A stretch of DNA of 64,000 nucleotides from Waterburya sp. (GTDB lineage: Bacteria; Cyanobacteriota; Cyanobacteriia; Cyanobacteriales; Xenococcaceae), in NCBI GenBank assembly GCA_965217895.1, contig CBDCJV010000002.1, forward strand, positions 3,328,001 to 3,392,000, given 5' to 3'. This document shows, in pieces, positions 37,677 to 45,927 of the stretch. Every line of letters starts with the position of its first letter. The stretch's first letter is position 1. The notes beneath the pieces are model-generated. The model worked only from the letters and a program-made list of their open reading frames with translations, had not been told where the DNA came from and did not search any database. The position numbers were made by a program, and so were the translations under genes.

Positions 37677-37977
37677 AAGAGATAGAGGTAAACAACTCTC
37701 TCTTAAGATTAAAGTCTTAAAAGCTGCTCTGAAAATTGGGTATTACCGAATCTGCCCGTATTTCCAGAAAGGTGACGTTGGTAAATGCGTAATATTGTGA
37801 AGTCCAAAATCAATGAAATTAATATAGGGCGATACTTTTAAACTGCTTGGACTGTTGAAATAGTCTCAATAAGAAATTTAGAGCTTGAAAATATAATTGT
37901 AATAACCAATAACCATTGGAGTACGCAAACGGTAAAATAAAAATATACCTTTTATATCTTTTTACTGGTTGCCAATT

Positions 37978-38232
37978 ATGGATGCAATTACCTACACTCA
38001 AGCAAGAAAAAACTTTTCAACCGTTATGAACCAAGTTTGTGACGACCACACACCAATTATAATTACTCGTCAGTCAGAACGTCCCGTAGTAATTATGTCA
38101 CTTGAAGACTACAGCGCAATTGAAGAAACGATGTATTTATTAAAAAGTCCTGCGAATGCTCAACGTCTTTATGAAGCATTAGAACAACTCAAAAAAGGTA
38201 ATTATCAAAAGCATGAACTAATAGAAGAATAA
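37978..38232 (+). CDS. yefM: antitoxin YefM (Phd family)
   Basis: YTQARKNF, IIITRQ, EETMYLLKSPANA. Confidence 0.93.
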   Translation: MDAITYTQARKNFSTVMNQVCDDHTPIIITRQSERPVVIMSLEDYSAIEETMYLLKSPANAQRLYEALEQLKKGNYQKHELIEE

Positions 38233-38239
38233 ATCTAAG

Positions 38240-38494
38240 ATGAACATTATGTTTTTGGATGATGCTTGGCAGGATTATTTATATTGGCAAAAAGTAGATA
38301 AGAAAATACTTAAACGAATTAATCAACTGATTAAAGATATTCAAAGAAGTCCAGTTAAAGGCTTAGGCAAACCAGAACCTTTGAAGTTTGATATGTCTGG
38401 TTTATGGTCACGTCGGATTAGCCAAGAACATCGTTTAATTTATCAGGTTAAAGATGAATACGTGGTTATTGTTCAATGTCAATATCATTATTAA
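38240..38494 (+). CDS. yoeB: toxin YoeB/Txe
   Basis: AWQDYLYWQ, GKPEPLK, WSRRISQEHRLIY, C-terminal YHY. Confidence 0.95.
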   Translation: MNIMFLDDAWQDYLYWQKVDKKILKRINQLIKDIQRSPVKGLGKPEPLKFDMSGLWSRRISQEHRLIYQVKDEYVVIVQCQYHY

Positions 38495-39570: not shown

Positions 39571-40179
39571 CTATATCTTGATTGCGCTCGGTTCGGATAT
39601 AGTTGCAATAATGCGATCGCAACCCGACTTTGGTTTTGCCCACTGATAGATATGTTCTTGGGGTTTTCCCCAACATAAACCGAGATAAATTTCTGTGCGG
39701 GCTGCGTCTATTTCTGCCCATTCTGTTTGTTGAACTAGCTTTTGCAGATAGCCAAAGGTAATTTTTTGATGGTGACTACCATTATTATCAAGACGATTGT
39801 TAACTAGCCAGAAATTCATTTTGTCCGTCATTGAATACCAAAAATCAAGAATTTTAGTTCGGGCTGCAATTAAAATATCTTTATCTCCTGAGACAGGAAT
39901 CAATTGATTATGTATTTCTGGATAGGTTATGCTTTGTCCAGCAAAAGTACAGGTGCGCCAAATAATTCCTGATACTTCGTGCTGTCGCTGATATTTATGG
40001 ATTTGAGAACGAAAATCGCGATAAGCAAATACTTTATTGACCTGATTCATATCTAAGGCTTTTGCTACGACAGGATCGTTTAGCCTTTTCGCTGATGATA
40101 AGACAATTCGTTTACCTTTCCAGTTTTCTTTTAGCTCGCAGTCTAATATTTGGATTAGTTCGTCAGTAGTATAAATCAT
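39571..40179 (-). CDS. hypothetical protein
   Basis: 202-aa ORF, no recognised domain. Confidence 0.7.
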   Translation of the reverse strand: MIYTTDELIQILDCELKENWKGKRIVLSSAKRLNDPVVAKALDMNQVNKVFAYRDFRSQIHKYQRQHEVSGIIWRTCTFAGQSITYPEIHNQLIPVSGDKDILIAARTKILDFWYSMTDKMNFWLVNNRLDNNGSHHQKITFGYLQKLVQQTEWAEIDAARTEIYLGLCWGKPQEHIYQWAKPKSGCDRIIATISEPSAIKI

Positions 40180-40389: not shown

Positions 40390-40632
40390 CTAATTATAAT
40401 TACGCCGAAAACGAGAATCAAAATGATGTTTTTTCCTTAGATTACATCGGCTGCATAATACTTGCAGGTTGCTAAGGTCATTACTTCCGCCCTTAGCCAG
40501 AGGAATAATATGATCTATATTTAGTCGGGCTTCGGTATTCTTTTTACCGCAGCTTTGGCATTGGTGGTTATTTCGCTGCAATACATATTTTTTAACAGGC
40601 TGAGGAATGTTAATTCTCTGTATTTTAGACAT
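40390..40632 (-). CDS. HNH endonuclease
   Basis: CQSC...DHIIPLAKGGSNDLSNLQVLCSRCN. Confidence 0.92.
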   Translation of the reverse strand: MSKIQRINIPQPVKKYVLQRNNHQCQSCGKKNTEARLNIDHIIPLAKGGSNDLSNLQVLCSRCNLRKKHHFDSRFRRNYN

Positions 40633-40634
40633 TA

Positions 40635-41012
40635 CTAAGAAATGGTTTGACGAATATCATCTAAAGAATTGCTGTTTTGTTCAGCACTATTAATTGTTGC
40701 ATCTTCTGGTTCATCAGGGCAAAATTCTAAAATGACTCTCAGTCTCATCTTGCCTTTTTTCCATTCTCCAGACTGCGGTTCTAATATTTCGGCATCAACA
40801 CTATTGTTCCAGAGATCGCTTTTATAATCTGGAGGACTTCCTAAACCAGCTTGATTTAACTTTTCTGATAATTTATGGAGTACTAAAATTTTTAAAAAGT
40901 TATTTAATTGTTCCATAAGCTTGCTAACTTTAAATGTCGTTCCATTATTAAAAGAAACAACCGCATTAGAGTCTTCGTGTTCCATTTGCTTGAAATTAAT
41001 TTCTGAGTTCAT
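40635..41012 (-). CDS. KGK-domain protein (copy 4)
   Basis: AEILEPQSGEWKKGKMRLRVILEFCPDEP...SLDDIRQ; ATG 41012 preferred because the TTG at 41090 lies inside the repeat. Confidence 0.88.
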   Translation of the reverse strand: MNSEINFKQMEHEDSNAVVSFNNGTTFKVSKLMEQLNNFLKILVLHKLSEKLNQAGLGSPPDYKSDLWNNSVDAEILEPQSGEWKKGKMRLRVILEFCPDEPEDATINSAEQNSNSLDDIRQTIS

Positions 41013-41040
41013 GTTGATAATTCTGGTAAATTTATAAAAA

Positions 41041-41172
41041 GTTGTCTGAGAAGTATAGATTATCATTTGAAAGCACCCTAAATCCCCCAAGCTTGGGGAA
41101 CTTGAAGTTATTTTTCTCCTCCAAGTTTGGGGGCTAGGGAGCTAAACCAGGATCTTAGATGTACCATATTGG
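41041..41172. mobile_element. MITE-like palindromic dispersed repeat (boundaries approximate)
   Basis: CCCTAAATCCCCCAA...TTGGGGGCTAGGG outer stem with internal CCCCAAGCTTGGGG palindrome (41085-41098). Confidence 0.65.
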
Positions 41173-41330
41173 TCAATCCATTTCTCTTTTTTATTGCGAT
41201 CGATATTTTCTCCTAATCTATTTAAAAACTCTTCAGCTTTATAAGTATGATGACCAACTAAAACATTATCTTCTTTATCATTAATTGAAATTACTTCATC
41301 GCCATTGATAAATTTATTTGCTTCTTCCAT
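41142..41330 (-). pseudogene. KGK-domain protein (copy 3), 3'-truncated
   Basis: N-half (DEVISI...TYKAEEF...KWID) resembles neighbours but runs into the repeat before the WxKGK motif. Confidence 0.7.
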
Positions 41331-41356
41331 TATTAATTACTTTCTAGTTTATCTTT

Positions 41357-41689
41357 TTAGTTAGCAGTATCTATTTGCTGGCGAATGTCATCTAGAGAAT
41401 TTGGTTTATTATTACTTTCATCTTCTTCAGGTTCAAACTGAACTACAAATTTGATTTTTCCTTTTCTCCACCCTTTTGAATTATTGTCTTGTCTTAAAAC
41501 TTGGCATTCAATACCTTGAGTGCAAATTTCTGAGTTATTTACATTTTCAGTTTCTACCTTGATGTATCCTTCGTACTCTGCAATTAACTGTTGTACTTTT
41601 AATGTATCACCCGAAGCAAACCTTCCTGCATCATGCTTGAATACCGAAATAACATCATCATTGTTTAAAATTTCCAAATCTTTACTCAT
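41357..41689 (-). CDS. KGK-domain protein (copy 2)
   Basis: GIECQVLRQDNNSKGWRKGKIKFVVQFEPE...SLDDIRQ. Confidence 0.88.
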   Translation of the reverse strand: MSKDLEILNNDDVISVFKHDAGRFASGDTLKVQQLIAEYEGYIKVETENVNNSEICTQGIECQVLRQDNNSKGWRKGKIKFVVQFEPEEDESNNKPNSLDDIRQQIDTAN

Positions 41690-41708
41690 AATTGATCTCT
41701 CTTAGTTA

Positions 41709-42125
41709 TTAGTTGTTTTGAATCACCTCTTGACGAACATCATCAAGAGGTGATTCAACAGATTCAGATTCATAAGGAATAAATTCTAGTGTTACATTAA
41801 TTTTAATTTTTCCTTTCTGCCATCCTTTAGAACCAGCTTTTAGTATTTCGCATTCTTCTCCTTGAAAAAACCATGAATACATTTTGCTTATATCATTTAA
41901 ATCAGAGTTTTGTGCTATGTGAGTGACAACGGACTCAATACCAGCACTATAAAAAGACTGATATATAATATCTTTTAGTTTGCTAACACTAATCCATTTT
42001 TTTGATTCAAAAGATATAACGTCTTTTGAGTCGCATTGAGTTAAATATTCGTTAATATCTAAGTAAAATTCAGATTTGGAATTTGAGATGAAATAATTTG
42101 GTGTGATTCTAGATGCCATAATCAA
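41709..42125 (-). CDS. KGK-domain protein (copy 1)
   Basis: GEECEILKAGSKGWQKGKIKINVTLEFIP...SPLDDVRQ. Confidence 0.9.
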   Translation of the reverse strand: MIMASRITPNYFISNSKSEFYLDINEYLTQCDSKDVISFESKKWISVSKLKDIIYQSFYSAGIESVVTHIAQNSDLNDISKMYSWFFQGEECEILKAGSKGWQKGKIKINVTLEFIPYESESVESPLDDVRQEVIQNN

Positions 42126-42143
42126 TTTACTTTTTTAATAATC

Positions 42144-44612
42144 TTACATATCTGTCGTAGCAGTTACCGAATCTAGATGACTGTGATCTCCGTTATCTTT
42201 ATTAGAAGTTTGAGTTTTCGGTTCAATATTAATTACTATTTCTTGTCGATCAATAACTGGTAATTGATGGTCAGGTAATTCTAGCGATCGCAAGCATTTA
42301 TTCAAGCCATTTACTGACTGGTTATACTGTTTTATTTTCTCTTTTACTTCTAACTGCAATTTTTGATTTAGGGCAATTTTAGTAATAGCTTCTTGTTCTA
42401 AAGTTTGTTCTAGAAATGCTCTTGCTTGAGGATAATACTGCACTATTTTCTCTGCCTGTTGTTGCGCCATTGGCAACAATTGAGTCTTGATAGTTTGATT
42501 GATAGTTTGACGAAAATTACGACGAATTGTGGTCGAAACTTTTGGTTCAAAGTCTAACTTTAATAGCTGACGGATAGCAGGTTCGGCTTCTACCATGCTG
42601 GCGCAGTCATAACCTTGAGAAGTCTGCTGTAATGTCTGACGAAACTGATAGATAGAAAACGTTCCTTCATCATAAAAGCGTGGACTTTCCCGAACATAGC
42701 GATCGCATTCTGTTTTGGCTTCACTAACCAGGGCATGAATTAATTTAACTTCTAATTCTTTTAATTCTGCTTGAATACCAGTATCTTCACCCAGCAAACG
42801 ATCTAGTTGACGGTAATAGTCTTGTTGTTTAAAGCGATCGCTCAAACGCTGACAAAAGTTTTGAACCAGTACTTCTGATGCTGAAACTAAAATAACCTCA
42901 AGTTCGTTAGCCAAGTAGTACAAAGCTTCTACCAATACAGCAATAAGAGGCGCGGTTGCATTACGGGGATGGGATAAGGTAGCGCGACTATAGGCATCTT
43001 GTACTGAAAAGGTTTGCAGGAGTTCATCGAGACGACTTACCATTTGCGCTTTCAGCTTCTGAAAGTCTGATTCAAATTCAGAATTTTGGTTAGTAACGAT
43101 GGAATTTACTTCGCTGGCTAAATGTTGCGAGAATTCTTTACCAATTATCTGTAGCTTTTGGTTGAGTAGCGTTAACTCCTGAGTTTTCATCGCCTCAATC
43201 TCTTGGGGTTGATTATCCAACTTTTGAAGCTGCTTTAGGTAATGCTGTTTAAGATCGCTACAGATAGGCTTGAGATCTTCAGCTAAGTTAGCAAAAAGCT
43301 GAGGGCGTTTTTCTTCTGTCAGGTAGCGACTAATGGCACTACGAAATTCTTCAATGCCACTATCGGCAATCAATTGTTCAATTAAGGGCGTACCAAATTC
43401 ACTGAGAATACGAGTGTAGTTTTCATTCTGTGTTTCGTAGCTATTGACGGATACTCGAAAGTTCGTGCGAGTAAGTTTACCTGAGTTGGCGCAGTAATTG
43501 TTAAATTCACTCACAAACTGGGGTGTTTCTTCCTCTCCGCCAATGCCTTTGACACTTTCAGCAAATAGGGAATTTAAACCAAAGCGATCGCTGCTGCTGG
43601 TAGACTTAACTTGACTACCGTAGAATCCCAATAAGCCACTGGTTTTATATACCCGCTTGTTACCTCTAAACTCAGTTTGAATTAAGCTATCCAAACGCTG
43701 TCTTAATTGTCCGTTATACCAAGTCTGATCGATGCGATTAAAGACATAAAAAACGCGATCGCGTATTCCTAGATTAGACTTCATCTTTTCCATTAACTCG
43801 GTTTCTTCGGAAGTCATTTCTCCAGCAGAGGCAGGTTTAAGAACACAGATTACCGCCGAAGTATCGGGATGTTCGATTTTGCTGTAGGTAAGTTCGGCAT
43901 CTTTCTTAACGGGTGCGTCAATACCTGGCATATCTACGAGAACATTACCGTCTTCTAAAAGCGGATGATGACAGTAATATTCAACCTTAGTCAGTACCGC
44001 GCTATTGCTACCCCGTCTAGCATAAGTAGCTGCTTGAGATAAATTAGAGAAATTAAATTCCTCCATCGAATAAGTATTATTTTTCTGGGCATCAATGCGA
44101 TCGCGATTTGCTGCAAATCCTTTTAGCAGTAAAGCTAAAGCATTAGCCTTTTTTGCCCTTTCTGACTTACTTACACCGCCTTCTTGTTCAATAATTACAG
44201 CACAAGCCTGATGCAGTAAATTGATTATTTCTGGTTCATTAATATTATCTTTTGCTGATAATCCCAAATGCTGGCATAAACTAAGGGCTTGCTGTTTAAT
44301 TTCTGCTTCACTCAGAAAAGTCAGAACTACTCTCTCGGCTTCAGGTTCAGCGTATTCTATATAGCATTCTGTGCCTGTGGCGTGTCCTTCGGCACTATAA
44401 AGCAATTCCCGTTCCAGCAGTGCATTAATCAACATTGATTTACCTGCACTAAAAGCCCCTGCAAAAACAATTTCAAACTTAGGGGCGATCGCTTTTTTCA
44501 AAGAAGCTTCGGCAACTCGAACTTGCTGATTTGTATTTAATTCCGCTACTAAATCTAAAATGCTATTGACGTTATGGGCTAGTTGAGAACATTGAGGAAG
44601 AAGAAAACTCAT
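42144..44612 (-). CDS. dynamin-like GTPase (SynDLP/Slr0869-type)
   Basis: G1 GAFSAGKS, G2 GHATGT, G3 DMPG, G4 NRID; helical stalk with HPRN motif; 822 aa. Confidence 0.9.
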   Translation of the reverse strand: MSFLLPQCSQLAHNVNSILDLVAELNTNQQVRVAEASLKKAIAPKFEIVFAGAFSAGKSMLINALLERELLYSAEGHATGTECYIEYAEPEAERVVLTFLSEAEIKQQALSLCQHLGLSAKDNINEPEIINLLHQACAVIIEQEGGVSKSERAKKANALALLLKGFAANRDRIDAQKNNTYSMEEFNFSNLSQAATYARRGSNSAVLTKVEYYCHHPLLEDGNVLVDMPGIDAPVKKDAELTYSKIEHPDTSAVICVLKPASAGEMTSEETELMEKMKSNLGIRDRVFYVFNRIDQTWYNGQLRQRLDSLIQTEFRGNKRVYKTSGLLGFYGSQVKSTSSSDRFGLNSLFAESVKGIGGEEETPQFVSEFNNYCANSGKLTRTNFRVSVNSYETQNENYTRILSEFGTPLIEQLIADSGIEEFRSAISRYLTEEKRPQLFANLAEDLKPICSDLKQHYLKQLQKLDNQPQEIEAMKTQELTLLNQKLQIIGKEFSQHLASEVNSIVTNQNSEFESDFQKLKAQMVSRLDELLQTFSVQDAYSRATLSHPRNATAPLIAVLVEALYYLANELEVILVSASEVLVQNFCQRLSDRFKQQDYYRQLDRLLGEDTGIQAELKELEVKLIHALVSEAKTECDRYVRESPRFYDEGTFSIYQFRQTLQQTSQGYDCASMVEAEPAIRQLLKLDFEPKVSTTIRRNFRQTINQTIKTQLLPMAQQQAEKIVQYYPQARAFLEQTLEQEAITKIALNQKLQLEVKEKIKQYNQSVNGLNKCLRSLELPDHQLPVIDRQEIVINIEPKTQTSNKDNGDHSHLDSVTATTDM

Positions 44613-44805
44613 AAAACTAAATAGGTTGTACTACTTAATCTAGAGTTCCCCCGCATCAATGATAAATATCTATTTGATTATGATTTTGTTGAATGGTGCG
44701 ATCGCATTTTCTAAGCAGAACTTTTTGATTAATACATTTATATTGTATTAATTTTGCAATACTGACAGATTTATTGTATAAAGATTTGAAGTAATTAAGA
44801 AATAT

Positions 44806-45327
44806 ATGATGCTAGGAGAAAACCATTATTTTGATAGGGGAGAAGTATATTTTCACGATCCTGACAATCCAGCAATACTTGCTTACAAAACCAAAGATTA
44901 TGTGATTGTTCGCAATAGTGAAATTATCAAGTTTTCAGTGTATCCTCACTCTATTTCCCATAAAAAAGTTATTGAATGGCTAAAAGGCTCAATCAGTTAC
45001 AAAGATAAAATAGTTACACCTGGTGGTAGAACGCTATCTTCAGATGGAAAGACTATCAGAAATAATACTGAATTTATCTACTTTATTTTTAATGCTGATA
45101 GCAATGCCATCAAAATTGGTAAAGCAAAAAATGTTTATAAAAGAATGAAGTCTTTACAAACTGCCACTCCTGCTTATCTAAAACTACTTAAAATTATAGA
45201 TGAAAAAGCTGGCAAAGAGGCAAGAGATACTGAACAATCATTGCACAGACAATTTAAACATCTAAAATTATTAGGAGAGTGGTTTAAATTTAATGATGAA
45301 TTACAAGAATTTATCAGACAACTTTGA
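44806..45327 (+). CDS. GIY-YIG nuclease (T5orf172/MUG113-like), copy 1
   Basis: FIYFI...IKIG...KRMKSLQT...EQSLHRQF...GEWF. Confidence 0.85.
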   Translation: MMLGENHYFDRGEVYFHDPDNPAILAYKTKDYVIVRNSEIIKFSVYPHSISHKKVIEWLKGSISYKDKIVTPGGRTLSSDGKTIRNNTEFIYFIFNADSNAIKIGKAKNVYKRMKSLQTATPAYLKLLKIIDEKAGKEARDTEQSLHRQFKHLKLLGEWFKFNDELQEFIRQL

Positions 45328-45339
45328 GGACAGATTGAT

Positions 45340-45927
45340 ATGAAAACGATAGGAATTTCATATGCAAGAGCTTGGAAATATAGTAAGCCTAGTTTAATGA
45401 ATAAAATTGAGCTTGGAAAGATATATTTTTTCATTGGCGGAAGCGCATACTTTCATAATCCTCAAATACCAGTCAGATTGAGTTACAAACACAAAGAGTT
45501 CTTCTTGATTAGAAAAAACCTCAAAATAAAAATTTCTATTTATCCTCGTTCACTTTCTAATCAGAAAATTATCGAATGGTTTAAAGCTTGGATTAGTAAA
45601 GAAGATATTTTATTTACTCCAGGTGGCGTAAAAATATTATCAAACGAAAAAGCTATATCAAATACACAAGAATATATTTATTTCATATTAAATATTGATA
45701 GTAACGCAGTCAAGATTGGCAGAGCAAAAGACGTTTTAAAGAGGCAAAGATCGCTTCAAGTTGCAAATCCTATGGAATTAATTCTGTTAAAGACTGTCCA
45801 AGTCAATTCTAGCAATGAAGCAAGGGAAAAAGAAAAAGCAGTTCATAATCAGTTTGATGATCTAAGGTTACTAGGTGAATGGTTTAAGTATGATGAGAAA
45901 TTACGTGAATTTATTGAAACTATCTAA
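45340..45927 (+). CDS. GIY-YIG nuclease (T5orf172/MUG113-like), copy 2
   Basis: YIYFI...VKIG...KRQRSLQV...EKAVHNQF...GEWF; start may be ATG 45397. Confidence 0.85.
   Translation: MKTIGISYARAWKYSKPSLMNKIELGKIYFFIGGSAYFHNPQIPVRLSYKHKEFFLIRKNLKIKISIYPRSLSNQKIIEWFKAWISKEDILFTPGGVKILSNEKAISNTQEYIYFILNIDSNAVKIGRAKDVLKRQRSLQVANPMELILLKTVQVNSSNEAREKEKAVHNQFDDLRLLGEWFKYDEKLREFIETI

Follow-up and report, generated by a model that had tools for sequence, protein, structure and literature searches.

A SynDLP-type dynamin–KGK–HNH operon of Waterburya sp. and its possible place in a motile-stage programme

What does an operon do that joins a dynamin-like GTPase to an array of KGK proteins and a minimal HNH nuclease? 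Such an operon lies in the window studied here, a 64,000-nucleotide stretch of Waterburya sp. (contig CBDCJV010000002.1, positions 3,328,001 to 3,392,000), where six co-oriented open reading frames (ORFs) on the minus strand at 40390..44612 encode, in this order, a dynamin-like protein (DLP), KGK1, KGK2, KGK3, KGK4 and HNH. An initial annotation had given these genes, their order and their spacing correctly, and had taken the KGK proteins for interchangeable, diversifying sensors with an HNH effector. It left out a motile-stage regulon, the reading to which the promoter and the expression data point. In our view the best reading, with about an even chance of being right, is a membrane-remodelling operon of the motile stage with dimeric KGK accessory proteins; we place it in a motile-stage programme, rather than among fast-diversifying anti-phage cassettes, because of its J-box and the published expression data. 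The operon is of a known kind, the published cyanobacterial SynDLP/KGK-clade cluster, and the cassette itself is not new. The value of the present analysis lies in the sigma-factor link, which makes an open question testable.

Promoter and expression

A J-box-like extended -10 element, GGGAACTCT, is predicted at 44642..44650 on the minus strand, 38 nt 5' of the dynamin ATG; the published consensus is GGGaAtacT. In hormogonium promoters that depend on SigJ, the J-box serves as the extended -10 element, and SigF is thought to read it in strains without SigJ (PMC6495340; this and most papers cited below are represented by excerpts, to which the statements are limited). The pattern GGGAAnnnT recurs at about -40 upstream of dynamins. 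Between -30 and -60 it was found in 20 of 76 non-redundant upstream regions (47 of 123 having been dropped as near-duplicates or too short); shifted windows gave 2, and 300 shuffles gave 0.9 on average (maximum 4). Across the organism's own genome, hits to the motif concentrate between -50 and -30 (30 in two bins, 1–7 in each other bin), and the pilB-type gene carries the same element at -40. A genome search for a group 3 sigma factor returned two SigB/F/G-like frames of 264–267 amino acids (aa) that score under the TIGR02980 cut-off. We infer that a SigJ/SigF-type sigma factor uses the J-box in this organism.

Nostocales mostly carry, instead of the J-box, a GTAA-n-TACTG element about 70 nt upstream, which resembles the cluster 10/11 motif of PMC6495340; the two motifs occurred together in none of the 76 upstream regions. 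Scans for sigma-70 promoters and terminators stayed at chance level. In a Nostoc-like genus, a conserved element made of a J-box and a short hairpin after it lies about 70 nt 5' of KGK genes that stand alone (loci L112, L113, L121, L122 and L191–L195).

Expression data exist for Nostoc punctiforme, in which Npun_R1152 is the dynamin orthologue: over 80 nt of published promoter and gene start it agrees with the dynamin start of locus L152 at 77 positions, and the order R1152, R1151, LD-carboxypeptidase, FAD oxidoreductase is that of loci L110 and L150–L152. Labelled 'hypothetical protein' and assigned to cluster 11 (sigJ+sigC), Npun_R1152 rises through 6, 142, 368, 894 and 879 in wild-type hormogonia (about 150-fold), with maxima of 41 without sigJ, 28 without sigC and near the wild type without sigF (PMC6495340). 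Three further genes of this data set bear on the KGK family. Npun_R1151, a probable KGK gene by synteny with L110, rises from 0 to 198 in hormogonia; Npun_R1663, whose promoter element precedes a KGK gene in all five matches (five genomes searched), rises from 60 to 2786 and reaches at most 15 without sigJ; and Npun_F5957, which sits in the ccsA-tilS slot where KGK genes stand, rises from 1 to 29 in hormogonia (PMC6495340). Npun_F6302, the HNH orthologue by its oxidoreductase neighbour and unlinked in this genus, stays flat at 11–22 (PMC6495340).

Strong, sigJ-dependent induction in hormogonia is seen too for Npun_F0558 and for Npun_R6512/R6513, the BDLP pair known from structural work (PMC6495340 Data Set S1, in the part available), so that all four dynamin genes in the N. 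punctiforme data set belong to one developmental programme; we found no literature on hormogonium induction of these three genes. Npun_F0558, a dynamin with a called J-box, was also considered for the orthologue, but it does not have the neighbours that the orthologue has in Nostoc-like loci and was therefore rejected. Taken together, the promoter and the published expression of a relative suggest that the operon is switched on at entry to the motile, pilus-bearing stage. No paper linking the dynamin/KGK operon to SigJ or hormogonia was found in a search that left subscription journals mostly outside and did not cover supplements. With Npun_R1152 as the orthologue, the question can be put to a strain amenable to genetics, in a defined condition and with a phenotype to look for.

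For Synechocystis, slr0868–slr0871 are reported to be up together 6–16-fold in a lexA mutant, in which ssr1473 and ssl1577 rise too (PMC4759255). A cyanobacterial LexA box upstream of the dynamin had no exact match in 90 regions and five with one mismatch, and was rejected as a conserved feature. Excerpts of PMC12454622, PMC8875361 and PMC9950537 also mention slr0869, and those of PMC8272380 mention slr0868; PMC11345509 and PMC7766704 held nothing on this locus.

Dynamin, KGK proteins and HNH nuclease

The dynamin (42144..44612, minus strand, 822 aa) is an orthologue of SynDLP (Slr0869). It matches the SynDLP structure 7zw6_A with 1127 bits over residues 1–794, and carries the extended P-loop GAFSAGKSMLINALL at residue 52 (fitting GxxxxGKSxL/INALL), the HPRN oligomer motif at 548, and C8 and C773, which align to 7zw6 as the BSE disulfide cysteine pair. 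A KGK gene follows directly 3'. These features bear out the earlier assignment to the KGK clade of cyanobacterial dynamin-like proteins, which was defined with an extended P-loop among its criteria (PMC5827413). GTPase activity, oligomerisation and liposome fusion in vitro have been characterised for SynDLP only (PMC10104851). HNH is the downstream gene for 3 of 19 KGK-clade members (PMC5827413 supplement), and the main-text passages of PMC5827413 and PMC10104851 that were available mention neither HNH, nor KGK copy number, nor a sigma-factor link. Distant full-length dynamin paralogs of 31–33% identity were seen at L208 (genome G280), with no KGK or HNH gene nearby, and at L028 (G011), where 1.5 kb of flank was covered.

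Spacing in the operon is tight: 18 nt from DLP to KGK1 (24 to its ATG), then 19 and 26 nt, a wider gap at a repeat, and 2 nt between KGK4 and HNH. The window ORFs score above the Pfam cut-offs for Dynamin_N and HNH, as do three of the KGK copies for PF08872 (gathering cut-off 25.6 bits), all on the minus strand: KGK1 (41709..42119; 136 aa from ATG, acidic with a pI of 4.8, its ORF opening at TTG 42125) with 89 bits, KGK2 (41357..41689; 110 aa) with 50 bits and KGK4 (40635..41012; 125 aa from ATG) with 98 bits. Of the four KGK copies first reported, these three stand as intact. KGK3 (41142..41330, minus strand, 62 aa) is a pseudogene in which a dispersed palindromic repeat of about 75 nt (41073..41148) has replaced the C-terminal third; it has no Pfam KGK match and aligns at the DNA level with intact KGK3 genes of relatives. 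L197 carries the same lesion and L032 an independent stop; in the others the gene is intact at about 95 aa. The 151-aa ORF of KGK4 opens at a TTG inside this repeat, and the relatives start at ATG 41012. In the genome, the left half of the repeat has BLAST coverage 15–16 times, itself included, and the exact 14-nt arm occurs 26 times.

A 19-bp near-perfect inverted repeat lies over the KGK1 tail codons (41718..41758). The tail that bears it differs strongly from that of L032, and the KGK1 N-half is identical. This identity tract (window 41900–42100, 100% identity flanked by 65–96%) suggests a recent homologous exchange.

In a tree of 162 KGK domains, from which duplicate loci and most Rivularia copies were excluded, each of the three intact paralogs falls with the genes at its own position in relatives, and a fourth group consists of the relatives' intact KGK3 genes (support 0.94–0.98). 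Within the genus, array members have been lost and their order has never changed. The four KGK paralogs are old orthologous classes in fixed order. The pooled dN/dS was 0.31–0.45 for KGK N-halves, 0.38–0.54 for the middle, 0.10–0.16 for the core and 0.09 for the dynamin, and the highest value in any estimable KGK sub-region was 0.59; these region-level NG86 values (4–7 orthologues per gene, with the KGK3 middle and the HNH set saturated) are rough because synonymous sites are near saturation. Such values indicate that the KGK N-halves are under purifying selection. Interchangeable, diversifying sensors were thus not borne out. The proposed contrast of a constant C-terminus and a variable N-terminus held for the conserved C-terminal core and tail, but the N-halves share a D-V-[IV]-S-F...T-[FLY]-K motif present in all copies, and Pfam KGK matches begin at model positions 2–23. 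Variability is highest in the middle helix and loop, where mean column identity is 0.21; the N motif has 0.37, the core 0.58 and the tail 0.61.

The KGK4 monomer model (pLDDT 79, pTM 0.58) shows a broken long KGKxRxxLEF strand. The model of a natural KGK-KGK tandem fusion, P0001 (pTM 0.67), shows a continuous 16-residue strand in both copies; its strand pairing was read off the secondary-structure string and not from contacts. The models suggest that KGK forms a strand-paired dimer through the long C-terminal strand, and the paralogs could therefore form heterodimers. Fold searches gave a best Z of 4.5 for the KGK4 monomer (helix only) and 3.7 for the tandem fusion (PAS-like sheets). Neither these searches nor a PDB sequence search with KGK gave a clear match, which does not by itself mean a new fold, and an ESM Atlas search returned KGK clusters only. 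Complex prediction of dynamin 1–790 with KGK1 scored 0.04 (mark 0.32), with the controls not folded, and speaks neither for nor against binding.

At L109 and L133 the KGK tail motif forms the end of the dynamin, a hint that the tail acts beside this protein; for L109, a neutral deletion could explain this alternatively. The SPLDDIR tail as a mark of dynamin-linked KGKs only was rejected, as it also occurs on stand-alone KGKs of at least L112, L113, L117, L119–L124, L129, L137–L139 and L144. A search for KGK fusions (8000 candidates scored) found two proteins with acidic low-complexity tails and no effector domain. KGK domains with long acidic low-complexity tails (244–492 aa) stand at ccsA-tilS in L126 and L128–L131, and in the proteins P0066, P0151 and P0152. 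In Rivularia (L049–L072) a divergent KGK-like gene of 104–188 aa, without the WxKGK motif, lies between KGK and HNH.

The last gene (40390..40632, minus strand) encodes a predicted minimal zinc-binding HNH nuclease of 80 aa with a basic pI of 10.4. Across 39 sequences of its subfamily D40, N55, N64 and C25/28/60/63 are invariant and H41 is present in at least 90%. The protein thus has the D-H dyad, the conserved Asn, the second N/H and the two CxxC motifs of the His-Me family, an intact active site from which nuclease function is predicted.

Combining these elements, we propose the following. The operon would be vertically inherited, dispensable and part of a motile-stage programme (hormogonia in filamentous species; in this lineage presumably baeocytes or piliated cells). 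A SigJ/SigF-type sigma factor would activate it through the J-box, as the published induction in the relative suggests. The dynamin may then bind, remodel or reseal membranes as cell architecture and division change. KGK proteins, pairing through the long C-terminal strand into homo- or heterodimers as modelled on the tandem fusion, could serve, with their acidic SPLDDIR tail, as accessory regulators or adaptors that, for instance, restrain dynamin oligomerisation. HNH would be the ancestral last gene, with an intact active site and a looser coupling, and DNA clearing at this stage is probably its likeliest job.

Distribution and alternative explanations

Several points weigh against this proposal. 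The expression evidence comes from relatives, N. punctiforme and Synechocystis, and a regulon tells the timing of use, not function. Npun_R1152 sits in cluster 11 without a called J-box (PMC6495340), and R1151, R1663 and F5957 are probable KGK genes, assigned by synteny or promoter only. The J-box was spotted by eye before the test and about half of its carriers are close kin; 44 of the 76 upstream regions carry neither motif, and the cluster 10/11 motif is moderately enriched (12 of 76, with 7 in the shifted control and a shuffle mean of 1.9). SynDLP is dispensable under standard growth (PMC10104851). A pure membrane model leaves HNH without a role, and the Nostoc orthologue of HNH is uninduced. 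In the organism's own genus the dynamin is intact or near-intact in 14 of 29 genomes, with remnants in three and a distant paralog in one. The three genes have mostly been lost together there, which also fits defence genes.

In an even draw of 251 phylum genomes, 78 have the dynamin, always as a single copy; two large families have it in 30 of 34 and in 12 of 13 genomes. The HNH subfamily is present in 68 genomes of the draw and KGK in 80, and KGK and dynamin co-occur in 70. Family f35 (115 genomes) and family f27 (13 genomes) yielded no match to any of the three. A locus scan with one genome per species gave 79 dynamin loci, of which the 60 with at least 2.5 kb downstream were counted; this set over-represents Rivularia and Microcystis, and the divergent second KGK-like gene of Rivularia was not counted. 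KGK number per locus was 0 in 22, 1 in 22, 2 in 12, 4 in 3 and 5 in 1, and within the genus it ranged from 1 to 4, so that the variable copy number predicted earlier was found, as was a patchy presence. Of the 14 genus genomes with the dynamin, 13 have KGK and 12 a linked HNH (one frameshifted), and 10 genus genomes have none of the three genes. HNH lies within 5 kb of the dynamin in 37 of the 60 loci. At L178, HNH is divergent from the dynamin and lies 5' of it; three KGK genes stand 3' of the dynamin.

Most of the nearest neighbours have metabolic or regulatory roles; Uma2 also occurs, as do, occasionally, toxin-antitoxin and transposase genes. No defence-island context was found among 65 scanned neighbour genes, drawn from 62 representative nearest neighbours (of 133) and five inserted genes, with one skipped. 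Three flanking features of the window lie outside the operon. At 44806–45927 (plus strand), divergent from the dynamin, are two tandem T5orf172/MUG113 (GIY-YIG-like) genes, set in an AT-rich region (GC 0.30), which are not at the corresponding place in L032, L196 or L197. A YefM-YoeB toxin-antitoxin pair lies at 37969–38494 (plus strand), past two BMC (ccmK-type) genes. A 202-aa gene at 39571–40179 (minus strand), without a Pfam, NCBIfam or PADLOC match and 98% identical in L196 and L197, is a fixed flank in the closest relatives only.

The alternative that survives best is anti-phage or anti-DNA defence, perhaps timed to the piliated stage: the dynamin would reseal or sense the membrane, acidic KGK dimers would gate the basic HNH, and HNH would cut invading or own DNA. 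We regard this as possible but doubtful, and a stage-specific form of it is kept in view because the dynamin is retained in only 14 of the 29 genus genomes. The HNH subfamily occurs almost only with this dynamin (65 of 68 HNH genomes in the 251-genome draw; the model for HNH derives from dynamin-linked genes, and its weakest match, in G106, is probably another HNH); in 46 of these 65 it lies downstream of the dynamin on the same strand, at a distance of up to 5 kb. It directly follows the dynamin when KGK is absent (4 of 60 loci), and its catalytic and zinc residues are conserved. Patchy presence and block loss, the large KGK diversity (1626 clusters at 50% identity), the opposite charges of KGK (pI 4.6–4.8) and HNH (pI 10.4), and the report that B. 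subtilis DynA limits phage spread (PMC10104851) are also in keeping with defence. Against it, no region has a dN/dS near 1, the paralog order is fixed, the flanks are not defence genes except for Uma2 and toxin-antitoxin genes, and the PADLOC Leo models match at P-loop level only. The dynamin had no match among 72,556 plasmids, nor KGK4 among 50,697 phage records. The idea of an HNH effector is weakened further in that HNH is unlinked in 19 of the 65 genomes, is kept in 6 of 68 without any KGK match, and is unlinked and uninduced in N. punctiforme; its suggested co-conservation was borne out. For a diversifying form of defence in particular, the case is weak given purifying selection, old paralog classes, housekeeping flanks and the lack of a plasmid or phage copy in these searches.

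A more elaborate form, which we consider unlikely, is a developmentally timed immune module, in which the pilus sigma factor would also switch on a resealing dynamin together with KGK proteins; these would form strand-swapped homo- and heterodimers and gate the minimal HNH through their combinations and acidic tails. If this were true, piliated, DNA-taking cells would be armed when exposed to pilus-using phages and foreign DNA.

Loose co-location, with dynamin, KGK and HNH acting separately and inherited as an old block, we judge quite unlikely. All pairwise splits do occur, including the dynamin alone in 18 of 60 loci, KGK-HNH away from the dynamin (L132), and stand-alone KGK genes at recurrent sites (ccsA-tilS and NHL/thioredoxin-DUF952). 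However, the gene order is kept across many families though flanks change, KGK and dynamin co-occur in 70 of 80 KGK genomes and 70 of 78 dynamin genomes, and two dynamins (L109, L133) end in the KGK tail motif. Least probable, and very unlikely in our estimate, is a DNA-handling accessory of the type IV pilus or competence, in which HNH would trim or degrade imported or released DNA and the dynamin repair the envelope at pilus or uptake sites: it would suit the promoter class common to pilB, the intact HNH with basic termini and the Crp site reported 5' of slr0869 (PMC3159480), but competence genes are not recurrent neighbours (in Microcystis loci there is one PLD/helix-hairpin-helix gene), the sequence of HNH shows no export signal, and HNH is uninduced in hormogonia.

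Comparison with known systems

The motile-stage membrane-remodelling operon proposed here shares with the SynDLP (Slr0869)/KGK clade a full-length orthologue with the P-loop, HPRN motif and two cysteines, and a KGK gene downstream; it differs in its four-gene KGK array, which includes one pseudogene. Its promoter has the motif and the pilB-like distance to the start seen in the SigJ regulon of N. punctiforme hormogonia (PMC6495340), although this organism, judged by its relatives, is not a hormogonium former, and the motif is of the same kind as in the SigF promoters of Synechocystis (PMC2532724).

With B. subtilis DynA and with Eleos/LeoABC the shared feature is a dynamin-family GTPase acting on membranes. 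The window dynamin differs from these in having a single GTPase domain and no Leo partners, and its similarity to Eleos/LeoABC is confined to the P-loop (NF052648 at 32.7 bits against a cut-off of 1600, LeoA/LeoBC at about 30 bits). The dynamins DynAB of Streptomyces reportedly stabilise Z rings in synchronous sporulation septation. They are a tandem pair of another clade, with no KGK or HNH, and the likeness would be one of working, by analogy: a dynamin turned on for a developmental stage with synchronous division.

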